From assembly GCA_963749915.1 (NCBI GenBank), contig CAVVOP010000022.1, positions 448,001-512,000 on the forward strand: DNA of 64,000 nucleotides. Direction: 5' to 3'. Under the pieces are notes generated by a model. The model was not told the origin of the DNA. It searched no databases and was given only the letters and a program-made list of their open reading frames with translations. Positions 34,091 through 64,000 of this stretch are shown piece by piece. Every line of letters starts with the position of its first letter. The first letter of the stretch is position 1. A program made the position numbers and the translations under genes. The stretch is from an uncultured cyanobacterium (GTDB lineage: Bacteria > Cyanobacteriota > Cyanobacteriia > Cyanobacteriales > Cyanobacteriaceae).

Positions 34091-35659
34091 ATGTTTTGGG
34101 CGGATAAAATAGCGGAGACATCACGACAACCCGAATTAGTCAACGATTCCAAAACCCCTTCAGGTAGAGTTCATGTCGGTTCAGTGAGAGGGGTGATTAT
34201 TCATGATGTGATTTACCGAGCCTTGAAAAGGGCAGGAAAACCTGTTAAATTTACCTACGGCGTTGACGATTACGATGCATTAGATACTGTCCCTCACTAT
34301 TTGGATAAGGACAAATTTGCCCCCTATTTAGGTTATCCTCTTTGCAATGTGCCTTCTCCTGATGAAAGTACTTCCGATTATGCCAAATATTTTATGGGAG
34401 AATTTCTGGCGGTTTTTGAGTATTTAGGTGTGAAAGCCGAGATTTATTATTTAAGAGACTTATATCGCTCTGGAAAATTAAACTCTTACATTGATCAATT
34501 TTTACGTCACGCCCAGGATGTCAGAGAAGTTTATAAAGATGTTAGTAAAGCAGAACGTCCTGACAATTGGTATCCTTTTCAAGTAGTTTGCGAAAATTGC
34601 GGTAAAATTGCTACTACAAATGTAACTAACTATCGTGAAAAAGAAGTTTTTTATACTTGTAAAGAAGACGCTACAGATTGGGTTAAAGGCTGTGGACATC
34701 ATGGTTGGGTATCGCCTTTTAATGGTAACGGGAAACTGCCTTGGAAGGTGGAATGGGTGGCTAAATGGGATTTAATCGGTGTTACCATGGAAATGGCGGG
34801 AAAAGATCACTCTCAAAAAGGTGGATCTCGTGATGTTGCTAACGCTATTTGTCGTAAGGTTTTACACAAAAAACCTCCCTTTCATTCCCCTTATGAGTTT
34901 ATCTTAGTCAATGGCACAAAAATGAGTTCCTCTAAGGGTGTTGGCTCAAGTGCGGGGGAGATGGCGGCCTTGTTGCCTCCAGAATTGCTACGTTTTTTAA
35001 TGTTAAGAACTCAGCCAAAAACTGTGATTAATTTTGCTCCTAATTATGAAACTATTACCCGTTTATTTAGAGATTATGATAGTCTGTTAAATGATTATAG
35101 TAAATTGCAAGAAAATAATTCAGAAGTAGAATTAGATAAAAATTTTTCACCCTTATTTTATGCACAATTAGGAGAAGAAATTAAACCTTATTACACTTTT
35201 GATATTAGTACCTTAATTTCTTTATTACAAGTACCCCATTTAGACTTGAAAGAGGAAATTACTAGAAGGGCAGAAAGGGAATTAAATGAATATGATTGGC
35301 AGAAAATAAACCAAAGAATTGTTGTGGCTAAAAAATGGTTAGAAGATTATGCAGATGAAGAAGAAAAACTGGTTATTTACTTTGATAAAGTTCCCGAAAT
35401 CGCTTCTCAATTAACTGATGAACAAAAACAATATTTGACTAAATTAAGAGAAGTTTTAACCACCGTTGAAAAATGGGAGGGAGAAGAACTGCAAACAGCT
35501 TTATTTACTGCCACAAAACAGTTAGGAATTCGCCCTAATATCGCTTTTCCTGCGGTTTATTATTCATTTTTAGGTAAGGAAAAAGGGCCAAAGGCGGGTT
35601 ATTTATTCTCTTATTTAGACAAGAATTTTGTATTAGGAAGACTACAGGAAGTTGTATAA
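34091..35659 (+). CDS. lysS: Class I lysyl-tRNA synthetase (LysRS1)
   Basis: MFWAD start, TPSGRVHVGS (HIGH-like), DDYD.L, CENCGK Zn motif, GKLPWKVEW, GKDH, KMSSSKG, EKGPKAG. Confidence 0.92.
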   Translation: MFWADKIAETSRQPELVNDSKTPSGRVHVGSVRGVIIHDVIYRALKRAGKPVKFTYGVDDYDALDTVPHYLDKDKFAPYLGYPLCNVPSPDESTSDYAKYFMGEFLAVFEYLGVKAEIYYLRDLYRSGKLNSYIDQFLRHAQDVREVYKDVSKAERPDNWYPFQVVCENCGKIATTNVTNYREKEVFYTCKEDATDWVKGCGHHGWVSPFNGNGKLPWKVEWVAKWDLIGVTMEMAGKDHSQKGGSRDVANAICRKVLHKKPPFHSPYEFILVNGTKMSSSKGVGSSAGEMAALLPPELLRFLMLRTQPKTVINFAPNYETITRLFRDYDSLLNDYSKLQENNSEVELDKNFSPLFYAQLGEEIKPYYTFDISTLISLLQVPHLDLKEEITRRAERELNEYDWQKINQRIVVAKKWLEDYADEEEKLVIYFDKVPEIASQLTDEQKQYLTKLREVLTTVEKWEGEELQTALFTATKQLGIRPNIAFPAVYYSFLGKEKGPKAGYLFSYLDKNFVLGRLQEVV

Positions 35660-51245: not shown

Positions 51246-52151
51246 GGCTCTTCTACAGTGAGTATGACAAATTAAGTACAAAAACAAAGTCACAAAATGG
51301 TAAAATTTTACACAAGTGAAGCGATCAGTTCTGATAAATAGATGCTACCTCGCTTTTAAACTATTAGGAAAATTAATCAAATTTTTAAATAAAACAATAA
51401 TTTTTATCTTATGCCTTCTAATTCCTCTCTTCATCTTATCACTAAACTTATTAATTTTGAGGGAGTCAAAGCTACTGATTACCATTTTATTACTGACAAC
51501 GAAATTTTAATTACATTATCGAATCAAACATCAGAGTCAACTTGCCCTTATTGTCATACTATTACTAATAAAATACACCAAGATCATTATTATCGAATTA
51601 GAGATATACCTTTGAGTGGTTATGATGTGTTTTTAAATATTAACCGCCGTCAATTTCGATGTATTCATTGCCAGAAAATTTTTAGTGAAGAGTTAAATTT
51701 TGTCAAAAAAAGAAGGACTTATACAACTAGATTGGCAGAGAAAGTAGTTAAGGAAGTGCTAGAAAGTGATATTTTAAACACTGCCAAAAGAAATGGAATG
51801 ACTCCCAGAGAAATAGAAACCTTATCAAAAGAAAAATCAGAAGATTTATTAGAAGAAAAACCAAAGGATTTAAAAAGATTAGGAATTGATGAAATAACTC
51901 AGTTAAAAGGAGGAAAGAATTACGCCGCAGTGTTAGTGGATTTAGACAAAAAAAAACCGATAGCAATTTTAGAGAACAGAAGTAAAGAGACAATCGGAAA
52001 ATACTTGATAAGTCTGGGTTGTGAGGTGTTAAATCAAATTGAAGAAGTCAGCATAGATTTGTGGATAGGATATAAAACTTTGGCATTGGAGTTAATGCCA
52101 AATGCCAATATAGTGGCAGATAGATTCCATGTAATGAAACAAATAAATGAG
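51246..52151 (+). mobile_element. ISL3-family IS, copy 1 (3'-truncated); transposase fragment 51411-52154
   Basis: Left IR GGCTCTTCTACAGT. Transposase with zf-ISL3 CPYC/CIHC, GIDE and ADRFHV motifs. Near-identical to copy 2 until it stops at QINE. Confidence 0.92.
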
Positions 52152-52439
52152 TAGTCAAAGTATAGACGATTTTAGATATCGCTAATACAATCCTAGATGA
52201 AATGGTTGAATGTGTTAAAATTTTTCTGAATTTATCTATCTTAAATCAATTCTGATAATAACTGGAAGCTAGGTATAATAAGTGTTCTCCCCTTTTTTCT
52301 AATTATTCAAACCAATGAACACACAAAATGAACTAAAAATTGACTGTTTCTTTCCTCAATTTTCTCTTGCTTTTAGATTAATTATTGCAAGCTTCATCGG
52401 CATTTGGCACTAGCTTTACTTTTATTCAAAATGGTTTTC

Positions 52440-53505
52440 CTAACTGGAACAATATTGGTTTTTTTTCAGGTAATGTAATAATATTGATGGTTTTTCAACT
52501 TTTGACACCAAAGATAACAATTCTGAAGATGAATTAACGGCTTGTGATCTTTTGAATTATATATTCAGCGAGACAATTCATGACCTTAATTTCTTAATCA
52601 GTTAGTTTTTCCCATAATTCTAATAATTTATTATTCATCTTTTTTTGAATGGTGTTATTAATTTAATATTTTTCAGCCATAATTGTTGAAATAAATCTTG
52701 AGAAATGTAGCCCTTATCTCCAAATAATCGACCCCATAAATCCTTCGTTAAATAAGGTACTGTTTTTCTATCGTCCACATTACCTTTTGTTATTTGAAAT
52801 GCCAATATTTCTCCCAATTCATTAATAATTAAATGTAATTTAAAGCCGAAGTACCAGTCTATAGAGCTTTTTCCCCAATGAGCCAAGTTATCAAAAACTT
52901 TATTTCTTTTGGCTCTTTTATTGTGGCAAATAGGAATACCCATTGTATCGATAAAAGAAATTCCTGTACATGATCCTTTACGAGTATTGAGATAAAAAAT
53001 TAAAGGAATTAAAGCGGAAGATTTAAGTTGAACAAAACGATTATAACTGACCAAATTAGGAAAATCTTGAAAATGATAAACCTGAATATGATTTTGATAA
53101 TAGTGTTTAAAGTTTCGATAACTAGAATGATGAAAATAAATAATAATAGTCATAATTTCACTCAAGGATAATCGACTATTTTTGATTCTTTTTTTCTGTT
53201 TAGATGATAAAATTTGACGATTAAAAGATGGTTCAAAAATTAAACAGAAATCATCTACATCATAGAAAAGTGTTTCTAATTCCATAAAAATTAATTTTTA
53301 AAAAATAACATATTGATTATGAAATTAATTTAAAAAAAAAAGGAGATATTAGCAATGAAATTTAATAAATATTCAGAAAAATTAACTTATTAATCTGGGT
53401 AGAACTTTTAATACATTAAGAATTGTAAAATAGCGAAAAATAGTATAAACCCAAAACTCATATAAGTTAAGAGTTTGAGACTATTTTCTTATATCGAACT
53501 CAGGT
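52440..53505 (-). mobile_element. IS982-family IS remnant; transposase 52635-53285 with decayed 3' end
   Basis: VDDFC, SEIMTI, SYNRFV, FIDT, WYFGFKLH, FGDKGYIS motifs; end sequence ACCTGAGTTCGATATAAG starting at 53505; the lower boundary is approximate. Confidence 0.85.
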
Positions 53506-53583
53506 ATATTAGGAACAGCAACGGCATTATGCTTCGGGACTATGTTGAAACGTAAAAATACTTTGAATAAAGAAGCTAAATAA
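53506..53583 (+). pseudogene. Orphan 3' end of a PEP-CTERM-type sorting-signal gene
   Basis: ILGTATALCFGTMLKRKNTLNKEAK* begins exactly at the IS982 end. Confidence 0.65.
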
Positions 53584-53621
53584 TATCGATACAAGTACAA
53601 AAATGATAAATAAACTTGAAT

Positions 53622-53647
53622 GACGGCTACTACAGTCGTCTTTTTTT
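53622..53647 (+). terminator. Rho-independent terminator
   Basis: gacggct...agtcgtc stem followed by T7. Confidence 0.7.
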
Positions 53648-53749
53648 ATGTCTCAAAACCGATCGCATTTGAGACTAATATGAATGCAATTAGGTATTGC
53701 TTATGGGGTTAATTGCTTTTAAAGTGAATTATTATTCATTAATATTGGA

Positions 53750-54175
53750 TTAATATTTATCTAGAAACATAAGTTTAAAGTCAGTTGCATTAACAATATC
53801 AATACCCTCAAAAGAATTTAAAACTAGCAAGTCTAAATCACCAGTAATAATAAAATTAACTGGAATAGATAAAGCAGCTTCTAAAACTATTTTATCCTTT
53901 AAATCTCTTAATTCAGAAATCTCTAATATTGATTTTGGTTGGCATAATTTAGTAATTAACTTGACACCATTAACTAACTCTTGAGTTGAATAATTTAGTT
54001 GTTTTAATCTCTTTTGTAACTTTTCTTTAGCTAAGGTTTCTTCTAGCTCTTTTAATAAAGAATTAGAAATATAAATAGTTGCTGAATTATTCTCTGCTAA
54101 CTGAATTATCTGACGAGGAATACCACCCCATAATAGACCTGAAATCCAGATATTCGTATCAAGTAATAGTTTCAC
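53750..54175 (-). CDS. PIN-family toxin
   Basis: LLDTNIWISGLL, ELEETL, RD.KD..VLEAA, IITGD.DLL. Confidence 0.9.
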   Translation of the reverse strand: MKLLLDTNIWISGLLWGGIPRQIIQLAENNSATIYISNSLLKELEETLAKEKLQKRLKQLNYSTQELVNGVKLITKLCQPKSILEISELRDLKDKIVLEAALSIPVNFIITGDLDLLVLNSFEGIDIVNATDFKLMFLDKY

Positions 54176-54390
54176 TACCCAGCTCTATCTTCCCGAACTT
54201 CTTTCACCAAAGAGACAATTTCTTCTGTGGACAATTGCTCCTTATCTTCTCCTAAATCATCTATTTTTTGCCATAACTGAGTCAAAGTATTTTCTCTTTT
54301 GGTAAACTGCTTAATTAACTGATATACTTCTTCTAATTTTTCTTCGGGAATATTATCAATTTCAGCTTTAATTAAATCTGCTATTGTCAT
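54175..54390 (-). CDS. Putative antitoxin
   Basis: 71 aa; overlaps the toxin start by 1 bp; EIDNIPEEKLEEVYQLI and EEIVSLVKEVR. Confidence 0.75.
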   Translation of the reverse strand: MTIADLIKAEIDNIPEEKLEEVYQLIKQFTKRENTLTQLWQKIDDLGEDKEQLSTEEIVSLVKEVREDRAG

Positions 54391-54422
54391 TATATATTTC
54401 CTTTTGCTGATCTAATAATAAT

Positions 54423-55761
54423 GGCTCTTCTACAGTGAGTATGACAAATTAAGTACAAAAACAAAGTCACAAAATGGTAAAATTTTACACAAGTGAAGCG
54501 ATCAGTTCTGATAAATAGATGCTACCTCGCTTTTAAACTATTAGGAAAATTAATCAAATTTTTAAATAAAACAATAATTTTTATCTTATGCCTTCTAATT
54601 CCTCTCTTCATCTTATCACTAAACTTATTAATTTTGAGGGAGTCAAAGCTACTGATTACCATTTTATTACTGACAACGAAATTTTAATTATATTATCGAA
54701 TCAAACATCAGAGTCAACTTGCCCTTATTGTCATACTATTACTAAAAAAATACACCAAGATCATTATTATCGAATTAGAGATATACCTTTGAGTGGTTAT
54801 GATGTGTTTTTAAATATTAACCGCCGTCAATTTCGATGTATTCATTGCCAGAAAATTTTTAGTGAAGAGTTAAATTTTGTCAAAAAAAGAAGGACTTATA
54901 CAACTAGATTGGCAGAGAAAGTAGTTAAGGAAGTGCTAGAAGGTGATATTTTAAACACTGCCAAAAGAAATGGAATAACTCCCAGAGAAATAGAAACCTT
55001 ATTAAAAGAAAAATCAGAGGATTTATTAGAAGAAAAACCAAAGGATTTAAAAAGATTAGGAATTGATGAAATAACTCAGTTAAAAGGAGGAAAGAATTAC
55101 GCCGCAGTGTTAGTGGATTTAGACAAAAAAAACCGATAGCAATTTTAGAAAACAGAAGTAAAGAGACAATCAGAAAATACCTGATAAGTTTAGGTTCTGA
55201 GGTATTAAATCAAATTGAAGAAGTCAGTATAGATTTGTGGATAGGATATAAAACTTTGGCATTGGAGTTAATGCCAAATGCAAACGTAGTAGCAGATAGA
55301 TTTCATGTAATGAAACAAATAAATGAAGAATTAGATCTGATGCGAAAAAAGCAAAAAAGGGCAGCTTCAGAAATCAAAAATGAAGTAGAAAAAGAGAAAT
55401 TAGAAGAAGTCAAAAAAGTAGCACCAGAGTTAATAATAATGTACGCAGAAAAAGAGGCATGGAGGGATATATTTGAAAGTGAAATAACAGCGGAAGAAGC
55501 ATTAGATAAAATAGCGGAATGGATGAAATCAGCACAGAAATATTTTCCCAAAAGTTGTCAAACAATAAGAAGATGGCTAGATGAAATATTAGGCTATTTT
55601 GACAACAGAACAAGTCAAGGTATAGTAGAAGGAATTAATCAAAAAATTAAGCTGATTAAGAGAAGAGCTTATGGCATGACAAATTTTGATAATTTTAGGC
55701 GAAGAATCTTATTAAATTGGTCTGTATCTTAAAAATGTATCATAGCTACTGTAGAAGAACC
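54423..55761 (+). mobile_element. ISL3-family IS, copy 2 (both IRs); transposase 54588-55732 frameshifted at an A8 run near 55125-55132
   Basis: Left IR GGCTCTTCTACAGT and right IR (reverse complement GGTTCTTCTACAGT). C-terminal TSQGIVEGINQKIKLIKRRAYG. Copy 1 has A9 at the frameshift site. Confidence 0.95.
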
Positions 55762-55799
55762 ATAATTTTTAACTTTATTCAGCATCCAGTAGAATCATT

Positions 55800-55846
55800 C
55801 TGACACCTGACACCTGACACCTGACACCTGACACCTGACACCTGAC
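55800..55846 (+). repeat. Heptamer tandem repeat (CTGACAC)x6.7, STRR-like
   Basis: Six perfect copies plus a partial copy. Confidence 0.95.
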
Positions 55847-55891: not shown

Positions 55892-57703
55892 TTACTTATA
55901 ATATTCAGCTTGGGTAGCAAATAGGTGGGCATAAGTACCCTGAAGTTTCATAAGTTCCTCATGAGTTCCACTCTCACTAATTGTGCCATTTTCCAGAACA
56001 AAAATACGATCTGTTAGCTTTACCGTAGAAAGACGGTGACTGATAATCAAAGTAGTTCGATTTTTGGCTAAATGACGAAATTTAGTTAGTACTTCCGCTT
56101 CTGCTTGGGGATCTAATGCACTGGTGGGTTCATCAAGAATAAGGATAGGACTTTTACGCAGATAAGCCCTAGCGATGGCAATTTTTTGCCATTCTCCGAT
56201 ACTTAATTCTTCTCCTCTTTCAAATTCGTGACCAAGAATAGTATCGTAACCATGAGGAAAACTGGCGATCATTTCTTCAACACCTGCGAAAGAGGCCGCT
56301 TGGCAAATATCCTGGGATTTATGTAGTAATCTCACATCCCCGAAGCCAATATTCTCTGTCACCGTAAGATTATAATGAGCATAATCTTGAAAAACAGCAC
56401 TAATTTGTTCCCGTAAAATTGAAGTATCGAATTGTCGTAGATCGATGCCGTCTATGGTAATATTACCATCGGTCGGGTCATAAAGACGGCATAACAGCTT
56501 AACGAGGGAACTTTTCCCCGCTCCATTTTTTCCCACAAGGGCAACGGTTTCCCCTGGCTTAATGGTAAAGTTAAGATCTTCCAACACGGGGCGAGAACTT
56601 TGAGCATAACAAAATTGAACGTTATGGAATTGAATTCCCACTTTCAACGGCTCAACAAAAGCACAAGGATGGCTAGGTTCTTCTACTGTCGGTTTTAAGT
56701 CGAGGAACTCATAGAAACTCGAAAGGAATAGACTGTTTTCATAAAGACTGGCTAAACTAGACAATGCTTCCCTCAATAAACTTTGACCCCTTTGAAATGC
56801 CTGATAATACATAACTAGGCTACCAATACTAATCTTCCCTTGAACCGTTTGGTGAGCAATAAAGCCAATAGAACCGAATACAGCCAGATTTCCACTCCAC
56901 TGGGTGATCACTTCTGCGAAAGAACGTTGAGTTGCCAGAGTTATTTTTTCTTTGCGAATAGAAGTGCGTAGTTGATTATATTGTTTGCGAAAACGAGAGC
57001 CTAAATTAAACAGGCGAATTTCTTTGGCATGAGTTTCGTGGGTAAGTAGCCAGTTAAAGTAATCTGCTAATCTTTGGTTTGGTGTCCATTCTCGCCAACG
57101 ACGGTAAAGTTTATCAGCATATTTAATTCGTATGATTAAACTAGGTACAACTGCAAGAAATAAGATAGTAACGATTCCCCAATGCAAAGATAAAAGTAAC
57201 AAGGAGATCGCCACTAGAGAAATTCCGCTTTGTCCTAGTTGGATCAACTGATTTAAAATTATTCTTGGACGATAAGGAGCTTCAGATTGGGCTCGATGTA
57301 AAGCGTCATAGAAAGAGTTATTTTCATAATACCCTAAGTCAACTTCGGTGGATTTAGCGTGGAGTAAATTTTGTACATCATCCGTTACAATTTCCGAGTG
57401 AGCCTCATTGACCACTGCCGACAAGGAACGAGACAAGTCAATAATCAGGGCAATAACAGCCGCAAAAACAATTAGCCCAATTATTTGCTTCATGTCACTG
57501 GTTTTAGTCTCTAAGCTCATAGTGACAGTGTCTATGATTTGTTTTGTTAGATACAGCGAGATAAGGGGAAGGAAACCTTGAACAAAGAGCAAACCAAAAG
57601 AAGCAATAGTTAGAGCGGAAGAGCTGTGCCAGGCAATTTCTACTGCTCGCCATAAAAAGAGTAAACGTTTGATTCTTTGCTTATTACGATAGTTGAAGGA
57701 CAA
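55892..57703 (-). CDS. ABC exporter (fused TMD-NBD) of the lasso peptide cluster
   Basis: TM region; GKNGAGKS, LSIGEWQKIAIARA, ILDEPT, ISHRLS; divergent from the lasso operon. Confidence 0.9.
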   Translation of the reverse strand: MSFNYRNKQRIKRLLFLWRAVEIAWHSSSALTIASFGLLFVQGFLPLISLYLTKQIIDTVTMSLETKTSDMKQIIGLIVFAAVIALIIDLSRSLSAVVNEAHSEIVTDDVQNLLHAKSTEVDLGYYENNSFYDALHRAQSEAPYRPRIILNQLIQLGQSGISLVAISLLLLSLHWGIVTILFLAVVPSLIIRIKYADKLYRRWREWTPNQRLADYFNWLLTHETHAKEIRLFNLGSRFRKQYNQLRTSIRKEKITLATQRSFAEVITQWSGNLAVFGSIGFIAHQTVQGKISIGSLVMYYQAFQRGQSLLREALSSLASLYENSLFLSSFYEFLDLKPTVEEPSHPCAFVEPLKVGIQFHNVQFCYAQSSRPVLEDLNFTIKPGETVALVGKNGAGKSSLVKLLCRLYDPTDGNITIDGIDLRQFDTSILREQISAVFQDYAHYNLTVTENIGFGDVRLLHKSQDICQAASFAGVEEMIASFPHGYDTILGHEFERGEELSIGEWQKIAIARAYLRKSPILILDEPTSALDPQAEAEVLTKFRHLAKNRTTLIISHRLSTVKLTDRIFVLENGTISESGTHEELMKLQGTYAHLFATQAEYYK

Positions 57704-57770
57704 AATTTAACCGAACCTCACTATTTGCAATTAATATAGGATTTTACTTATTCTAGTAAAATTAATATTT

Positions 57771-58970
57771 ATGATGATGATGACTATAACTTCTAATCAC
57801 CCGCAAAAGTCAGAAATAGAGTTTTTATTGTGTTGTACCCAACCGGAGCTGACCACAACTCAAAAAGATCATTTGCTCCATCTTGGAAAACAAGAACTTG
57901 ACTGGTCATACTTAATTTCCTTTGCCTCTGAACATGGGCTTATGCCCTTACTTTATCGTCAACTTAAAGTCACATGCCCTGATATTGTCCCCGAAAAGAT
58001 ACTGATTCAGTTACGCCAATATTCTCTGGCTAAAACAGCAAGAAACATGGCTATGACAGCAGAATTGATCAGGATACTCAATCTTTGTAAAGATCAACAA
58101 ATCCCCATGCTCTCTTTTAAAGGACCTCTTCTTGCTCAACTTGCCTATGGAGATCTTAGTTTTCGGGAATTTGGGGATTTGGACTTACTAATTACTGAAT
58201 CTGAGTTACCTAAAGTTCATAAATTACTTTTAGCTCAGGGCTATCAACCCCTGTACAATATCAAAGATTCACAGATCGAAGTTTATGGAAAATTGCAACA
58301 CGAATTAGCCTACTCCCATGAAGCTAAAGGTATAATTATCGACTTACACTGGTCTATTGTGCACAAATATTTTTCTTTTTCTCCCTCATCTAAGTTTATT
58401 TGGTCAAAACTTGATCAGATCAACTTAAATAATCACAAAGTCGAAACTTTATCACTGGAAATCTTAATTGTTTTTTTATGTGCTCACTCAGCTAAACATG
58501 GTTGGTCAGATCTTTCCTTAATTTGTGAACTAGCCCATTTATTAAAACGCCATCCGCAAATTGATTGGGAAATAATCGAATCTTATATGGGAAATCTAGG
58601 AGGTCGAACTATGGTATTGCTGAGTCTGAGTTTAACTCAAACAATTTATGGAACAAATTTGCCCAAAAATATTTGTCAACAAATAATAAAATCTGAACCC
58701 ATTTTGACTAAACTTTCTGCCCAAGTTGAAGAACAAATCTTTTCCCCCAGAAATAAGCTATTAGATATTTTTTCCCCGAATTTTTTGTATTCTCAAAGTA
58801 TGGAATCTTGGCAAGACCGTTTTCTGTATTGGCTCAATGTTTCTACAACTCCTACTTCTATTGAGATGGAGGCAATTTCCTTACCAACAATTTTATTTCC
58901 CCTTTATTATCCGATCAGGATATTTAGACTAAGCTACAAGCACTTAAAAAAGTTTTTCATCAAAAATTAA
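57771..58970 (+). CDS. Nucleotidyltransferase family protein (NTP_transf_5-like), lasso cluster
   Basis: FKGPLLA..AY...SFREFGDLDLLI, IDLHW, HSAKHGW. Confidence 0.85.
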   Translation: MMMMTITSNHPQKSEIEFLLCCTQPELTTTQKDHLLHLGKQELDWSYLISFASEHGLMPLLYRQLKVTCPDIVPEKILIQLRQYSLAKTARNMAMTAELIRILNLCKDQQIPMLSFKGPLLAQLAYGDLSFREFGDLDLLITESELPKVHKLLLAQGYQPLYNIKDSQIEVYGKLQHELAYSHEAKGIIIDLHWSIVHKYFSFSPSSKFIWSKLDQINLNNHKVETLSLEILIVFLCAHSAKHGWSDLSLICELAHLLKRHPQIDWEIIESYMGNLGGRTMVLLSLSLTQTIYGTNLPKNICQQIIKSEPILTKLSAQVEEQIFSPRNKLLDIFSPNFLYSQSMESWQDRFLYWLNVSTTPTSIEMEAISLPTILFPLYYPIRIFRLSYKHLKKFFIKN

Positions 58971-59032
58971 CTTACCCAAACTTTGTTATATTAAAGGCGA
59001 AATAATTATAAATTAGTTTGAAGAATTAGATT

Positions 59033-59305
59033 ATGAAGGTAATGGTACCTGAGTCCGTTTTGGTGCAAAATTTAGATAATGAGTCAGTATTGCTGAATAT
59101 TGATACAGAGCAGTATTTTGGCTTGGATGATGTAGGCTCTCAGATGTGGGATCTTCTCAAAACCAGTGAATCAGTAGAAAATGCTACAGAAAAACTGCTA
59201 GAAATATACGATGCAGAAAAAGAACAATTGTACAAAGATTTACTGGAATTCATCGAAAAATTATCAGAACATGGTTTATTACAAATTATTAAAACGCGAG
59301 ATTAA
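59033..59305 (+). CDS. PqqD-family RiPP recognition element (lasso B1)
   Basis: ESVLLNIDTEQYFGLDDVGSQMWDLL...DLLEFIEKLSEHGLL. Confidence 0.92.
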   Translation: MKVMVPESVLVQNLDNESVLLNIDTEQYFGLDDVGSQMWDLLKTSESVENATEKLLEIYDAEKEQLYKDLLEFIEKLSEHGLLQIIKTRD

Positions 59306-59729
59306 TTCATTATTACAGTTATCTTCTCATGGGCGAAAATTACTGTTACAAGCTCTGATTTTATTCCCGTTAGTTCATCTTTCTCTAACATTAAAGGGAT
59401 TAAAACAAACTCAATCCTTGCTTGCTAATTTTGTTTCTAAAGCCCAAATTACTCCCCAAAAAAACACTGAGGTGGTTTGCTTTACGGAAAAAATAGTGGC
59501 CATCGCATCTCGCTACAGTCGTCCTTGGGGAAGCTGTTTGAGACGATCTCTTGTCTTATGGTTTTTGTTGCGCCGTGAAGGAGTTGAGAGTCAGTTACGC
59601 ATTGGGGTAAAACGAGAAAAAGACCAATTTTCCGCTCATGCTTGGGTAGAGTGGGACGGAGTTGTTTTAAATGACCAGTCCAACGTGGGAGATGAATTTG
59701 CTATGTTTGAAAATTTACGAGTTCTTTAA
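59271..59729 (+). CDS. Lasso peptide leader peptidase B2 (transglutaminase-like)
   Basis: SCLRRSL (Cys), LRIGV, AHAWVE (His), VLND (Asp); ATG 59271 preferred over 59211. Confidence 0.92.
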   Translation: MVYYKLLKREINSLLQLSSHGRKLLLQALILFPLVHLSLTLKGLKQTQSLLANFVSKAQITPQKNTEVVCFTEKIVAIASRYSRPWGSCLRRSLVLWFLLRREGVESQLRIGVKREKDQFSAHAWVEWDGVVLNDQSNVGDEFAMFENLRVL

Positions 59730-59741
59730 TGACGATATCCT

Positions 59742-60719
59742 ATGGCTATATATAAATATAAATATGTTGATGTAATTTTTATAAGCAATATTTTTTTACC
59801 GAGCCTTTCTGTCATTAACGGGGATACTTTTGACTATATTTTCCAACTGGGATGCTCATCTTCTCGTAATAGAATATTTGGTGGTGACTGGATACACCAT
59901 TGGACTTTTGCCAATGAGGAAGTATGGCTTTCCTTAGGGAAAGAAGAAAATGAATACTATCTTAAATTTCCTGATATAGCTGACTTCTACTTCTCCCCCG
60001 AAAACAAGACCATTGATTGCTATGAGCAACCCGATATTTCCATCGAAACCATTAGGCACTTATTACTCAATGTAGTTATGCCTCTTGTTCTCACTTACAG
60101 AGGGAAATATTTTCTTCATGTAGGTGCCATAGATCTAAAAGAGATTGGAGTCGCTTTTCTGGGGAAATCAGGTTTTGGCAAATCAACTTTAACCACTAGC
60201 TTTGGGCAAAAAGGGTTTCCCATAATTACAGACGATTGTGTAGTTGTGGAGCAAGATCAAGATAAATTTACCCTTATGCCTGCACCCCCACAGTTGCGAT
60301 TATGGGATGAGTCCATCGATTTCTTATTTGCACAAAAAAAACCCCATTTATCTCGAGGAGTTAACTATACAAACAAAGCACACTTATATGAAGCGGATGC
60401 TATGGGGATTGTGTTTTCCAGTGAAATTGTTCCACTCGGGTGTATATACGTTCTCTGTTCCCCTGAATCGGTGGAAGAATTGGATACCACCATTGACATT
60501 AAGCGATTATCCTCAAGAGAAGCGATGTTTCACTTACTTGAGTCCGTATTTCGCTTCGACATTAGTGACAAATCAAGAGTGGCACAAGAGTTTGATTTCC
60601 TTAGTAAAATTGCACGCTCTGTACCTTGTTTCCATCTTCGTTATCCCAGAAATTTTAATCTTTTGTCCGAGGTACAATCAGCAGTCGTCGAGAACACTCT
60701 AAGGGAGATAAAAGTATGA
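59742..60719 (+). CDS. HPr-kinase-like kinase of the lasso cluster
   Basis: LHVGAI (His), Walker A GKSGFGKST, ITDD di-aspartate. Confidence 0.85.
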   Translation: MAIYKYKYVDVIFISNIFLPSLSVINGDTFDYIFQLGCSSSRNRIFGGDWIHHWTFANEEVWLSLGKEENEYYLKFPDIADFYFSPENKTIDCYEQPDISIETIRHLLLNVVMPLVLTYRGKYFLHVGAIDLKEIGVAFLGKSGFGKSTLTTSFGQKGFPIITDDCVVVEQDQDKFTLMPAPPQLRLWDESIDFLFAQKKPHLSRGVNYTNKAHLYEADAMGIVFSSEIVPLGCIYVLCSPESVEELDTTIDIKRLSSREAMFHLLESVFRFDISDKSRVAQEFDFLSKIARSVPCFHLRYPRNFNLLSEVQSAVVENTLREIKV

Positions 60720-62635
60720 GTGGAATTGCAGGAGTTGTCCATTGGCATAGAGAACCAGTTAAATCCCATGAACTAGAACAAATGATAGTAAAACTACATC
60801 ATCGTGGACCCCATGGAAGAGGTATTTGGCTTGAGGGTTTTTGCGGTTTAGGTAATACACTGCTGTGGAATACTCCCGAATCCTTACAGGAAAAACTACC
60901 ATCGACCTCTGCTGAGGGAAATTTAGTCATTACCGCCGATGTTCGCCTAGATAACCGAGAGGAACTAATTGAGGCTCTAGGAATCACTAACAGCCATTCC
61001 TGGGAGGTTACTGACAGCGATCTAATTCTCGGTGCTTATCAAAAGTGGGGGCAAACTTGTCCGCAAAAATTACTCGGTGACTTTGCTTTTGCCATTTGGG
61101 ACTCCCGACAAGAGCAACTATTTTGTGCTAGGGATCATTTTGGCTGTAAACCTTTAATCTATTATCACTCAAATGGTATTTTCGCCTTTGCCTCAGAAGT
61201 TAAGGCTTTATTTTGTCTGGGAGACGTTCCTCGGCGTATTAATGAAGGGAGAATAGCCGATTTTTTGGTAATGACCCTAGAACGTATCGATAAAACTTCT
61301 ACTTTTTATGAAAATATTTTTAAATTGCCTCCTGCCCATACTTTGACCATCAATAGAGAGAAATGTTCTTTGGAGTGTTATTGGAATCTTGATAGCAGTA
61401 AGGAAATTCACTACTCATCAGATCAAGATTATGAAGACGCTTTTCTCGAAATCTTTACCGAGGCTGTAAGCTGTCGCCTCCGTAGTCATTCCTTAGTGGG
61501 TTCTATGCTCAGTGGGGGCATGGACTCCTCTTCGATTGTCTGTATTGCCCGTGAGCTTCTTTTGCAAAAAGGAGAATTACTCCATACCTTTTCTGGGGTT
61601 TCTGATGATAGACAAACCTGTTGTGAAAGTCCATTTATTGAGGCAATTCTTGGTTTGGGGGGGTTGAATGCGGAAGTAATTGGAGCAGATGAAGTGAAGT
61701 CTTTTTTACCAGATGTTCATAATTTATTCACACACACCGATGACTTATTTGACTTTCTCCTACATGGCATCACCTTAGTAACTTACAGTGCCGCCCACCG
61801 AAAAGGACTTCATGTGATGATGACTGGTTTAGACGGTGATTTAGTGGTTTCACAAAGGGAAATAATTTTGAGGAAGTTTTTACGCACAGGAAAGTTCAGT
61901 CGTGCTTATGAAGAAGCCCAAGCAATGACGAAGTTAAAAGGTTTATGGGGAGATAACTCCCCGACAAAATTACTCTGGAATGGTGGTTTAAAACCCCTCC
62001 TACCCCAGATTATCAAACAAAGTTGGCGGCTACTAAGCTCTAAAAAGAAAAACCAAGCAGATATTCAAAGCAGTCTTATTTCCGAGGAGTTTGCCCGACG
62101 GGTAAATTTAGAAGAACGCTTAGAAACTCTTTCCATAAATCTGGGAAAATATAAAGTGTTAAAAACAGCTAGAGAAGTTCATCAAAACTCCTTGGATGTT
62201 CCTAATCTCACCGTCGCCCTTGATAGATACGAAAGAGTTGCCGCATTCTATTCCATTGAACCGCGTCATCCCCTTCTCGATAAAAGATTGGTCGAGTTCT
62301 GTCTATCCCTTCCTGGTGAGCAAAAAGTTCGCCAAGGATGGACAAAATCCATTCTCAGAAGGGCAATGGTCGGGAAAGTGCCGGATTCCGTACGCTGGCG
62401 ACACGATTGTGATAATGTACAGCCTGCTTTTACAAAAAGTATGTTACGTCATCAACAAGAATATCTCCCAGATTGTATTGCTGAATGTGCTACTGAGTTA
62501 AAGGATTATGTTAATGTAAAAGAGCTTGAAAAACAGTACTTTCAGTGTTACGCCACAGAAACTGTTAACGAAGACGCAGGATGGAAAGTTTGGCCTACCG
62601 TCATCTTGGCTACGTGGCTTCGTGACCACAGGTAA
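60716..62635 (+). CDS. Lasso cyclase (asparagine synthetase-like C protein)
   Basis: MSGIAG (Ser in place of the glutaminase Cys), GDFAFAIWD, ARDHFG, LSGGMDSS, TGLDGD, RHPLLDKRLVEF; overlaps the kinase stop. Confidence 0.92.
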   Translation: MSGIAGVVHWHREPVKSHELEQMIVKLHHRGPHGRGIWLEGFCGLGNTLLWNTPESLQEKLPSTSAEGNLVITADVRLDNREELIEALGITNSHSWEVTDSDLILGAYQKWGQTCPQKLLGDFAFAIWDSRQEQLFCARDHFGCKPLIYYHSNGIFAFASEVKALFCLGDVPRRINEGRIADFLVMTLERIDKTSTFYENIFKLPPAHTLTINREKCSLECYWNLDSSKEIHYSSDQDYEDAFLEIFTEAVSCRLRSHSLVGSMLSGGMDSSSIVCIARELLLQKGELLHTFSGVSDDRQTCCESPFIEAILGLGGLNAEVIGADEVKSFLPDVHNLFTHTDDLFDFLLHGITLVTYSAAHRKGLHVMMTGLDGDLVVSQREIILRKFLRTGKFSRAYEEAQAMTKLKGLWGDNSPTKLLWNGGLKPLLPQIIKQSWRLLSSKKKNQADIQSSLISEEFARRVNLEERLETLSINLGKYKVLKTAREVHQNSLDVPNLTVALDRYERVAAFYSIEPRHPLLDKRLVEFCLSLPGEQKVRQGWTKSILRRAMVGKVPDSVRWRHDCDNVQPAFTKSMLRHQQEYLPDCIAECATELKDYVNVKELEKQYFQCYATETVNEDAGWKVWPTVILATWLRDHR

Positions 62636-62652
62636 AATTACTTAGTGAGTTA

Positions 62653-62681
62653 TTGACATATACATAATTAAATAATATGAT
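62653..62681 (+). promoter_or_regulatory. Near-consensus sigma70-type promoter for the lasso precursor
   Basis: TTGACA (62653-62658), 17 nt, TATGAT (62676-62681); ends 36 nt before the ATG. Confidence 0.75.
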
Positions 62682-62717
62682 TACGGTCGTCAACGTATTC
62701 AAAAAAATTTTCTTCCA

Positions 62718-62849
62718 ATGAAAAACCAAAATCTCAAAAAATATCACCCTCCTAAACTGGAAATTTATGGTAATGTTTCTAAACTGACTCAGGGTGGTAG
62801 TTCAGGTACCCCGGAAACAGCCATGAATCCCATAGGGGCACGACCATAA
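62718..62849 (+). CDS. Lasso peptide precursor (43 aa; not in the ORF track)
   Basis: MKNQNLKKYHPPKLEIYGNVSKLTQ-GGSSGTPETAMNPIGARP*: YxxPxL motif, Gly, Thr at -2, core Gly1 with Glu8. Confidence 0.92.
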   Translation: MKNQNLKKYHPPKLEIYGNVSKLTQGGSSGTPETAMNPIGARP

Positions 62850-63067
62850 ATTTAGCTCAAATGCAATCATAGTCTTTAATCTGGTCAAAACTGTTAGGGC
62901 GTTTTTATCTTCGAAAGGAAATACTACTGTTGATGAACATAGACTTTCTCGGCCTGTTTCTGAACTGGTAAGTTTTTGTTGATAAATCACATTACCCTAA
63001 CGACCAGATCTTAATAATAAATATTATTTTGTCTAAGTTTGTTCATAATTCTCAATCTATCAAAATT

Positions 63068-64000
63068 ATGTATAGTATTTTTGAATATGGAGGAATGATC
63101 AAAGATTCCGTACGGATGTCTGCTTACATTGAGACATTGCGTAGGACAGTAACACCAGAATCTATCGTTTTAGAGATTGGTACAGGCACAGGCATTTTTG
63201 CTCTTATTGCTTGTCAGTTAGGAGCGAGGAAGGTTTATGCCATTGAACCTAATAATGCGGCCATTCGGGTTGCTCAAGATATTGCCCGCGTCAATGGTTA
63301 TGGGGATAAAATTGAGTTCATTCAGAATCTATCAACTGAAATAAACCTGCCTGAAAAAGTTAGCATAATACTCTCTGATCTAAGAGGTACTCTGCCACTA
63401 TTTCAAAATCATATTCCCGTTATTGTTGATGCCAGAAAAAGATTTTTAAGTCCGAATGGTGTACTTATTCCCCAACAAGATACTCTGTGGGCATGTGTGG
63501 TAGAGGCACCAGAATTTTATCGAGATAAATATAGTTCTCCTTGGGATGATAAACCCTATGGTTTCGAGATGAAATCAGCACGGCGATTCACTACCAATAC
63601 TTGGCATAGGTATAAAGTAAAACCGGAAGAACTTTTTGTCGAATCTCAGTGCTGGTCAACTCTGGACTATAACACCAGAGAAGATCCCGATGTCAAAGGG
63701 GAACTAAATTGGACCGTAGCACGCACTGGAGTAGCCCATGGTTTAAGCGTTTGGTTTGATGCCACCTTAGCTGAAGGGATTGGTTTTTCCAATGCCCCCG
63801 ATCAAATCGGAAGCGTTCATGGTGAAGCTTTTTTCCCTTTTTCCTTTCCCGTAAATCTTTCCGAGGGGGATACTGTTTCTGTGACTTTACGAGCTGACTT
63901 AGTGGGGAATGATTATATCTGGCGTTGGCATACCCAGATATTTGCTCAAGACAATCCTGCTCAAGTTAAAACCAACTTTAAACAATCTACCTTTTTTGGT
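63068..64000 (+). CDS. SAM-dependent methyltransferase of PRMT (protein arginine methyltransferase) fold, 3'-truncated by window; not in the ORF track
   Basis: 311 open codons: MIKDSVRMSAY, VLEIGTGTG, VYAIE, LPEKVSIILSD, ARKRFLSPNGVLIP, HGLSVWFD, FSNAP. Confidence 0.85.
   Translation, partial: MYSIFEYGGMIKDSVRMSAYIETLRRTVTPESIVLEIGTGTGIFALIACQLGARKVYAIEPNNAAIRVAQDIARVNGYGDKIEFIQNLSTEINLPEKVSIILSDLRGTLPLFQNHIPVIVDARKRFLSPNGVLIPQQDTLWACVVEAPEFYRDKYSSPWDDKPYGFEMKSARRFTTNTWHRYKVKPEELFVESQCWSTLDYNTREDPDVKGELNWTVARTGVAHGLSVWFDATLAEGIGFSNAPDQIGSVHGEAFFPFSFPVNLSEGDTVSVTLRADLVGNDYIWRWHTQIFAQDNPAQVKTNFKQSTFFG

Follow-up and report, generated by a model that had tools for sequence, protein, structure and literature searches.

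A lasso peptide gene cluster of an uncultured cyanobacterium carries a PRMT-fold methyltransferase from an uncharacterized bacterial family

The window analyzed here, a stretch of 64,000 nucleotides from an uncultured cyanobacterium of the family Cyanobacteriaceae (contig CAVVOP010000022.1 of assembly GCA_963749915.1), contains at its 3' end a lasso peptide gene cluster of eight genes. At the level of sequence, these genes were confirmed as a real and intact lasso peptide pathway. Three of them encode putative tailoring enzymes, namely an HprK-like kinase, a nucleotidyltransferase-family protein (NT) and an S-adenosylmethionine (SAM)-dependent methyltransferase with the fold of protein arginine methyltransferases (PRMTs). 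A first-pass annotation of the sequence had singled out the three as a distinctive combination. All three are present, but kinase and NT are common in lasso clusters, which leaves the methyltransferase as the one distinctive tailoring gene; it marks an uncharacterized, widespread variant. Its bacterial family, large and uncharacterized, is linked to lasso clusters that carry a kinase gene. The cluster is very probably one with a dedicated methyltransferase, and the enzyme probably makes a peptide modification so far undescribed.

The Methyltransferase Family Is Linked to Kinase-Bearing Lasso Clusters

The METHYLTRANSFERASE family comprises 2910 homologue clusters at an E value of 0.001 or better, distant non-lasso relatives included; 120 of these were listed and 94 aligned. 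Homologues span several phyla, but few genomes of the enzyme's own phylum have one (7 of 401 at E 1e-30, its own genome included). The family has no curated model, its database labels PrmA and PRMT1 are mislabels, and the ESM Atlas gave automatically named clusters only. A single-sequence search of genome contigs returned no match; an alignment-based search returned the loci below.

Gene neighborhoods were taken from the best 80 of at least 239 genome loci and the best 80 of at least 270 metagenome loci, plus six regions. With the window enzyme, 164 homologues were aligned, and 161 were classed by a sequence rule of our own after removal of a duplicate locus and of rows with gaps in the loop. 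The main clade (n = 114) carries D104 in 108 members, R106 in 89, H106 in 14, E113 in 22 and H115 in 73. Canonical-like homologues (n = 33) have E104 in 31 and E113 in 29 cases, with neither R106 nor H115, and 14 sequences formed another class. Loci were counted as wide if flanked by 6 kb or more on one side and 3 kb or more on the other. Genes for lasso cyclase C or leader peptidase B2 were present in 38 of the 42 wide loci of the main clade and in 7 of the 9 of the other class, but in 0 of the 22 canonical-like ones. Every wide lasso locus with this methyltransferase also carried the kinase gene (38/38 in the main clade, and likewise in the other class). Of 28 loci that extend 10 kb to either side, 26 were lasso loci; all 26 had the kinase and 21 the NT. 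The kinase gene directly adjoins the methyltransferase gene in 78 of the 91 loci that have both, and of the 26 methyltransferase-bearing lasso loci with full flanks, 20 encode a related ATP-binding cassette (ABC) protein. Genes usually follow one another as B1-B2-C-A-kinase-methyltransferase-ABC-NT; the window is an exception, with C and A between kinase and methyltransferase.

Some loci speak against a clean split. Short canonical-like loci (L157, L169, L080) have lasso-type neighbors, and double-Glu enzymes adjoin lasso genes in L214, L225, L234, L240, L243 and L245, which stem from a B2-selected control (401 Acidobacteriota genomes, 95 of them with 109 matches in all, from which 60 loci were taken by rank with upstream room required). 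A few genes of the main clade have no lasso genes around them (e.g., L013, L020); B2 is encoded elsewhere in four of five such genomes and had no match in the fifth. Kinase-methyltransferase fusion proteins were not found. In the open-access literature searched (PMC and bioRxiv, with subscription journals and MIBiG outside the scope), no PRMT-fold enzyme in a lasso cluster is described, and no characterized cluster with the same layout appeared there either, as the first-pass annotation had supposed.

The PRMT Fold Is Retained and Its Arginine Pocket Is Predicted to Be Rebuilt

The best PDB sequence matches (E 3e-25) and the best Foldseek matches of the AlphaFold model (E 2e-27; mean model confidence, pLDDT, 91.8) were all PRMTs. 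The enzyme combines a Rossmann domain with a beta-barrel, retains motifs I, post-I and II, and matches PF22528 with 37.1 bits (cut-off 27); none of the NCBIfam models passed its cut-off. With eukaryotic PRMT1/2/7 (PDB 8dur, 8bva) it thus shares the fold (for chains of the PRMT1 type, a TM score near 0.85 over the target) and these three motifs, and it differs by its SDLRG..P..Q.H loop, the loss of THW, the lack of YFxxY and an additional C-terminal helical domain. The PRMT fold assigned at first therefore stood, but the arginine-binding loops are replaced.

These loops are defining for PRMTs: the double-E loop reads SExMGxxLxxExM, and a PRMT without both double-E and THW has been described as inactive (PMC12925635). 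In the window enzyme, SDLRGTLPLFQNH aligns to the PRMT segment SEWMGYFLLYESM, i.e., SEWMG...E is replaced by SDLRG...Q (D104-L-R106-G...H115). At the second loop, THWKQ aligns to SVHGE, the family having mostly (L/T)IYG. The alignment indicates that the arginine pocket is rebuilt, with one Asp, a new Arg, a His and no THW.

The last ~60 residues form three helices in the model, and several family members lack this domain. With VIA-align, the two best matches of these helices were PqqD 3g2b (Z 5.7, 50 residues aligned, root-mean-square deviation (rmsd) 2.6) and lasso B1 6jx3 (Z 5.3, 54 residues aligned, rmsd 3.7), both level with helical domains of no relation and not clear of background; a fold missing from the VIA-align table is not thereby excluded. 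Foldseek placed 6jx3 at rank 2 (E 1.2), and hhalign gave a probability of 50% for B1 across just 27 columns. The predicted complex of methyltransferase, precursor and S-adenosylhomocysteine scored 0.03, which is not evidence either way.

Further PRMT-like proteins were observed around this family. L240:10724-11899, L243:10657-11832 and L245:10611-11849 encode a separate clade with both Glu residues (SETIGNYGAEE), a TSW loop and a C-terminal helical domain; the genes are divergent from lasso clusters with Arg-rich cores, which are candidates for true arginine-methylated lasso peptides. Another lasso-linked PRMT-fold clade (L053, L054, L068, L161, L163, L164) carries D-Q/A-x-G-x-FGFEAG and an RRN loop instead of THW, and the adjoining cores are Met/Cys-tailed. 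Stand-alone bacterial proteins with canonical SEW(M/L)G...E and THW (L059, L060, L063, L066, L067, L069, L072, L075 and others) are apparently intact bacterial PRMTs without lasso genes nearby.

The Lasso Cluster Is Complete

The layout read from the sequence at first, with the ABC gene divergent from a run of NT, B1, B2, kinase and cyclase genes that is followed by precursor and methyltransferase genes, was borne out by the ORF list and profile scans: all eight genes were found in this order and on these strands (Table 1). The core machinery B1/B2/C/A likewise held, with matches above cut-off for PF05402, NF033537, NF033535 and NF033521.

Table 1. Genes and putative promoter of the lasso cluster (positions in the window).
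Feature	Position	Strand	Evidence
ABC exporter (lasso D protein), 603 aa, TTG start	55892..57703	-	PF00005 and PF00664
NTP_transf_5 nucleotidyltransferase-family protein (NT)	57771..58970	+	PF14907, 207.8 bits (cut-off 31.2)
B1, recognition element for ribosomally made, post-translationally modified peptides (RiPPs), PqqD family, 90 aa	59033..59305	+	PF05402, 66 bits
B2 leader peptidase, ~152 aa from ATG 59271	59271..59729	+	NF033537, 84.9 (cut-off 33)
HprK-like precursor kinase	59742..60719	+	PF07475, 30.3, just below cut-off 33.3; catalytic motif intact
Lasso cyclase C (macrolactam synthetase), 639 aa	60716..62635	+	NF033535 (cyanobacterial lasso cyclase), 688.6 (cut-off 525)
Sigma-70-like promoter match TTGACA-17-TATGAT	62653..62681	+	putative; 11/12; 37 nt 5' of precursor
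Precursor A, 43 aa, 25-aa leader	62718..62849	+	NF033521, 25 bits (cut-off 19)
PRMT-fold SAM-dependent methyltransferase, 384 aa, ATG 63068	63068..64000, continuing to extended position 64222	+	PrmA and PRMT_C matches

The ABC gene is separated from the operon by 67 bp. NT carries a D-x-D metal motif (KG...GDLDL), and B1 scored 62 bits with NF033536, below the cut-off of 80. The longest B2 ORF spans 59211-59729; judging from the homologue in L282, ATG 59271 is the likely start. B2 retains Cys109 and His143 (ORF numbering). The promoter match was the best of 10 sites, shuffled sequence yielding 5.6 sites of at least 9/12. Around precursor and methyltransferase genes no terminator-like site was found, and the predicted folding of the intervening 226-nt spacer is just modestly better than that of shuffled sequence (z -2.4). 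By tblastn, no paralogues of C, kinase, NT, B1, B2 or methyltransferase were detected elsewhere in the genome.

An extension of the cluster past position 64000, considered at first, was ruled out. The methyltransferase gene, which ends 222 nt beyond the window, is the last one and is followed by unrelated genes for an Exo_endo_phos protein and a PLD-domain protein, then by an ORF that we take, from recognizing its sequence, to encode a DNA gyrase A-like protein.

Grouping of the cyclase with housekeeping AsnB was also rejected: besides its high score with the lasso model, it scored 256.1 with the AsnB model TIGR01536, below the cut-off of 267.1, and its N-terminus is MSGI, without the N-terminal Cys that AsnB requires. 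No AsnB paralogue was found in this genome for comparison, and the cyclase tree was built from sequences other than housekeeping AsnB.

The precursor leader has Y(-17), P(-14), L(-12) and T(-2), which fits the YxxPxL plus Thr(-2) lasso pattern. The core, GGSSGTPETAMNPIGARP, has E8 as its sole acid, inside the lasso range of positions 7-9 for Asp/Glu, ends in Arg-Pro and lacks Lys and Asp; a macrolactam ring between G1 and E8 is predicted. The precursor is not a chance match, since the leader-plus-ring pattern hit just two short frames across all 4.69 Mb of the genome, the second being a stop-to-stop frame on contig C8; the precursor gene was also the sole profile match in the genome. Since the tail has no aromatic residue, threading may be unstable (compare PMC6993621). 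Among 70 distinct main-clade cores, the predicted first residue was Gly in 11, Thr in 18, Asn in 15, Ala in 12 and Ser in 10, and Asp occurs at position 10 in 19 (e.g., among L016, L021, L042, L090, L093); some of these cores may form 10-residue rings, or the leader boundary may be shifted.

The Kinase Probably Phosphorylates Core Ser3

Kinase and NT as a novelty were ruled out by controls from clusters of other genomes. The cyclase model NF033535 matched 15 of 401 genomes of the phylum, and all 16 non-self loci were taken: the kinase was present in 16/16, NT in 7/16 and this methyltransferase in 0/16, L201 having one weak 23-bit match. Among the Acidobacteriota B2-selected loci with a cyclase (n = 46), 39 had the kinase, 26 NT and 14 some PRMT-like gene.

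The His-Lys-Asp-Asp residues of HprK-like kinases are present (H126, K147, D164, D165), and the motif H126-G141-G144-G146-K147-S148-D164-D165 has spacing identical to that of BsfK. Two sites are known for such kinases. PadeK, ThcoK and PsmK phosphorylate the C-terminal Ser of the core (PMC9266682); BsfK, encoded in a cluster with NT, phosphorylates core Ser3 (PMC10368454). The C-terminal Ser is absent from the window core, which has the G1, S3 and E8 of the bsf-type arrangement (S/T3, Gly1, acid at 8), with Thr instead of the bsf-type Ile/Val at leader position -2. Of cores without S/T in the last three residues, 11 of 16 have S/T3, as compared to 9 of 54 others (the 70 distinct main-clade cores; Fisher p 1.6e-4, which overstates the contrast as kin are not independent), and S/T3 occurs in 11 of 12 Glu8 cores. 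In a FastTree of 154 kinases, the window kinase lies in a clade (support 0.86) where S/T3 occurs in 13 of the 16 loci whose core could be read. The lack of a C-terminal Ser, the presence of Ser3 and the S/T3-rich kinase clade suggest that the kinase phosphorylates core Ser3, as BsfK does, and this assignment is fairly likely to be correct. The initial comparison to paeninodin and pseudomycoidin clusters therefore did not carry over, since their kinases modify a C-terminal Ser and the window core ends in Pro; bsf is closer.

Proposed Pathway and Candidate Methylation Targets

In the proposed pathway, B1 would bind the leader, the kinase would phosphorylate the precursor, most likely at core Ser3, B2 would cleave after T(-2)-Q(-1), C would close the G1-E8 macrolactam and the ABC protein would export the product. 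The methyltransferase, a dedicated lasso tailoring enzyme derived from the PRMT fold, would methylate an anionic oxygen, either of the phosphate placed by the kinase or of a group that NT adds to it, yielding a phosphatase-resistant cap with less charge. We infer the ring position, the kinase site and all chemical steps; the pathway as a whole, including this O-methylation, is proposed tentatively, at somewhat less than an even chance. An anionic oxygen is suggested because the pocket exchanges Glu and Met for Arg and His, which would suit an anion. Mechanistically, WbdD offers a precedent: phosphorylation is followed by methylation of the phosphate, for which Arg203, His132 and His133 are essential, and these residues are missing in the O8 homologue, which methylates a hydroxyl (PMC3482155). 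A target carrying a sugar or nucleotide was kept as a variant because all five examined genomes without NT at the locus (4 main-clade, 1 other clade) have NTP_transf_5 elsewhere; so do 2 of 14 control genomes. Still more tentatively, a widespread bacterial branch of the PRMT fold may have switched from arginine N-methylation to O-methylation of phospho-Ser/Thr, or of its attached group, on lasso peptides; the methyl-phosphodiester so formed, which shares this grade, would be a peptide modification for which the literature searched held no description.

Several points weigh against O-methylation of the phosphate or its attached group. The linkage to the kinase is weak evidence, with kinases near-universal in the Acidobacteriota and cyanobacterial controls (39/46 and 16/16). 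R106 and H115 are predicted to point toward the substrate from the PRMT alignment rather than from coordinates; R106 is found in 89 of 114 main-clade enzymes only, H115 is missing in 41 of 114, and the window enzyme has VHG where most relatives have IYG. WbdD is of a different fold family and acts in a sugar system. PsmN caps the phosphate (PMC6993621), so that an NT capping the same phosphate would compete with the methyltransferase. That S/T occurs in 70/70 main-clade cores is unsurprising by composition. Finally, an Arg/His pair next to SAM would fit a carboxylate equally well, and K/R occurs among the last four core residues far more often with the enzyme (59/70) than in cyanobacterial clusters without it (5/18).

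The basic tails would fit N-methylation of a basic side chain near the C-terminus, mostly Lys and here Arg17, that bulks up the steric plug of an aromatic-poor tail; aromatic residues occur in just 25 of the 70 cores, and K or R in the cores of 62 of 64 loci. PRMT ancestry and the one acidic residue kept (D104) would accord with it, too. Basic tails were nevertheless rejected as a mark of the methyltransferase target, since closer controls have them without such an enzyme: the cores of L228, L242 and L244 end in RPRP, those of L251 and L256 have RT, and no full-length homologue was found in four of these five genomes, the fifth (G445) having one long match of partial coverage elsewhere. Arg cannot be the family-wide target, as judged from predicted cores, since it is missing from all cores in 34 of the 64 loci. 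The window core lacks Lys, so the enzyme would have to take Lys in some clusters and Arg in others, and it has lost double-E and THW, the state described as inactive for a PRMT (PMC12925635). The core of L149 has neither residue, nor has that of L241; the core of L036 is K/R-free as well, but that genome encodes a second precursor with Arg. N-methylation of Lys or Arg is thus regarded as unlikely.

L241 has the cyclase nearest to that of the window (47% identity, FastTree support 0.985), and its methyltransferase is 50% identical with the same SDLRGTLPLFQNH loop; its core is K/R-free, and no second precursor was found in its genome. Between the cyclase and precursor genes of L241, two ORFs were observed that overlap or are frameshifted (L241:12474-13296). 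In a tree of 31 enzymes, the window methyltransferase groups with mostly cyanobacterial enzymes of Lys-Thr-tailed clusters (support 95/98), and in none of 200 bootstrap trees did a branch set the nine enzymes of Ser3/Glu8 clusters apart from the rest (the bootstrap being not fully settled); the window cyclase and kinase fall with the Ser3/Glu8 clusters. The methyltransferase thus seems to move between core types. That it has Lys-Thr-type relatives yet occurs with a Lys-free Ser3/Glu8 core suggests a target common to both; every core offers its termini, backbone, ring acid and S/T as shared groups. A single acid is present in 42 of the 70 family cores.

Among the common groups, the C-terminus could receive a carboxyl methyl ester, i.e., the outcome known for lassomycin and StspM reached from an unrelated, PRMT-derived scaffold, with R106 and H115 binding the carboxylate. 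A free C-terminus is present in every core, those without K/R included, which would agree with the shuffling of the enzyme among core types; the last residue varies (T, P, G, M, V, S), and StspM is broadly specific (PMC9266682). An ester would, however, leave unexplained why kinase and methyltransferase genes adjoin in 78 of 91 loci and why 0 of 38 wide lasso loci lack the kinase, though the background rate of kinases is high. Its formation is considered rather improbable. An aspartimide route of the protein isoaspartyl methyltransferase (PIMT) type was ruled out, as the core has no Asp.

It is also doubtful that the enzyme has some other target (a backbone or N-terminal nitrogen, Met sulfur, an Asn/Gln amide or a biosynthetic protein) or was recruited without being active on the core. 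The cluster looks chimeric, with cyclase and kinase from the Ser3/Glu8 clade and the methyltransferase from among Lys-Thr-type enzymes; insertion sequence (IS) fragments adjoin it, a relative carries a deleted relic, and main-clade genes without lasso neighbors occur, one of five such genomes lacking a B2 match. Met is enriched in the cores (5.9% vs. 0.3%), but it is missing from those of 23 of 64 loci, and Asn/Gln from those of 11 of 64. Against a gene without function on the core, four of the five "orphan" genomes hold B2 elsewhere, the ORF is intact and retains both the SAM motifs and the invariant residues of the family, and the enzyme does not sit on a long branch (0.36 vs. a median of 0.58).

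Genome Context

DNA matches to the cluster were found in 0 of 6 genomes of the same genus. Of 19 same-family genomes, one (G812, 67% complete) carries a relic with 66-74% identity (L273, G812:C86:1533-6451) in which B1, B2 and kinase genes precede a cyclase gene truncated at 236 aa; next come half an ABC gene, encoding the C-terminal part, and NT. Precursor and methyltransferase were not found in the relic or in G812. The patchy distribution of the cluster, which lies next to IS fragments, suggests that it has been mobile and subject to loss.

Upstream of the cluster, window positions 51411-55846 contain two fragmented ISL3-type transposase genes, a DDE_Tnp_1_3 transposase gene and a PIN-domain gene with a 71-aa ORF upstream. 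A perfect heptamer repeat, CTGACAC in 6.7 copies (55800-55846), directly adjoins the ABC gene. Farther away, positions 34091-35659 encode a class I lysyl-tRNA synthetase (PF01921, 309 bits), which is unusual in cyanobacteria; the class II model TIGR00499 gave no match reaching its cut-off in this genome.

Comparison to Known Systems

The bsf cluster of Bradymonas sediminis FA350 shares A, B1, B2, C, ABC, an HprK-like kinase and NT with the window cluster, as well as Gly1, a ring acid at position 8, core Ser3 and the spacing of the kinase motif, the kinases having been compared by motif alone. It differs in its seven ORFs without a methyltransferase, in Ile(-2) instead of Thr(-2) and in Asp8 instead of Glu8, and its mature product was never detected according to the accessible text (PMC10368454). 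The window NT has the same Pfam-type annotation as PsmN and BsfN. The paeninodin (pade) and pseudomycoidin (psm) clusters likewise have a split B protein and an HprK-family kinase, and psm an NTP-transferase with an essential D-x-D that is needed for phosphate hexosylation. They differ in the phosphorylated C-terminal Ser, which is missing here, and the text available on them describes no methyltransferase (PMC9266682, PMC6993621, PMC11912497).

SAM-dependent lasso tailoring enzymes are already known with StspM/LasF (lassomycin-type) and the PIMT-type enzymes of cellulonodin-2 and lihuanodin. StspM was modeled on a small-molecule O-methyltransferase, whereas the window enzyme has the PRMT Rossmann and beta-barrel domains, and PIMT types need a non-ring Asp (PMC9266682), whereas the only acid of the window core is E8. 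WbdD of E. coli O9a, with a kinase followed by an Arg/His phosphate-methylating enzyme, is likened by mechanism, not homology: its substrate is a polysaccharide, its domains are fused and its kinase fold is different (PMC3482155).

Significance

Lasso peptides serve as scaffolds for engineering, and any new enzyme that tailors them is a tool. The clusters described here also provide another way to approach the role of PsmN-like nucleotidyltransferases, which is an open question. Since cultured carriers exist, namely Erythrobacter donghaensis DSM 16220 (L046) and Pseudomonas sp. N040 (L031), the methyltransferase family is directly testable. A PRMT-fold enzyme that is active without double-E and THW would be informative for the PRMT field, whatever its target. 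If the methyl-phosphodiester reading is true, the family would show how a PRMT pocket changes its nucleophile via a few loop residues.

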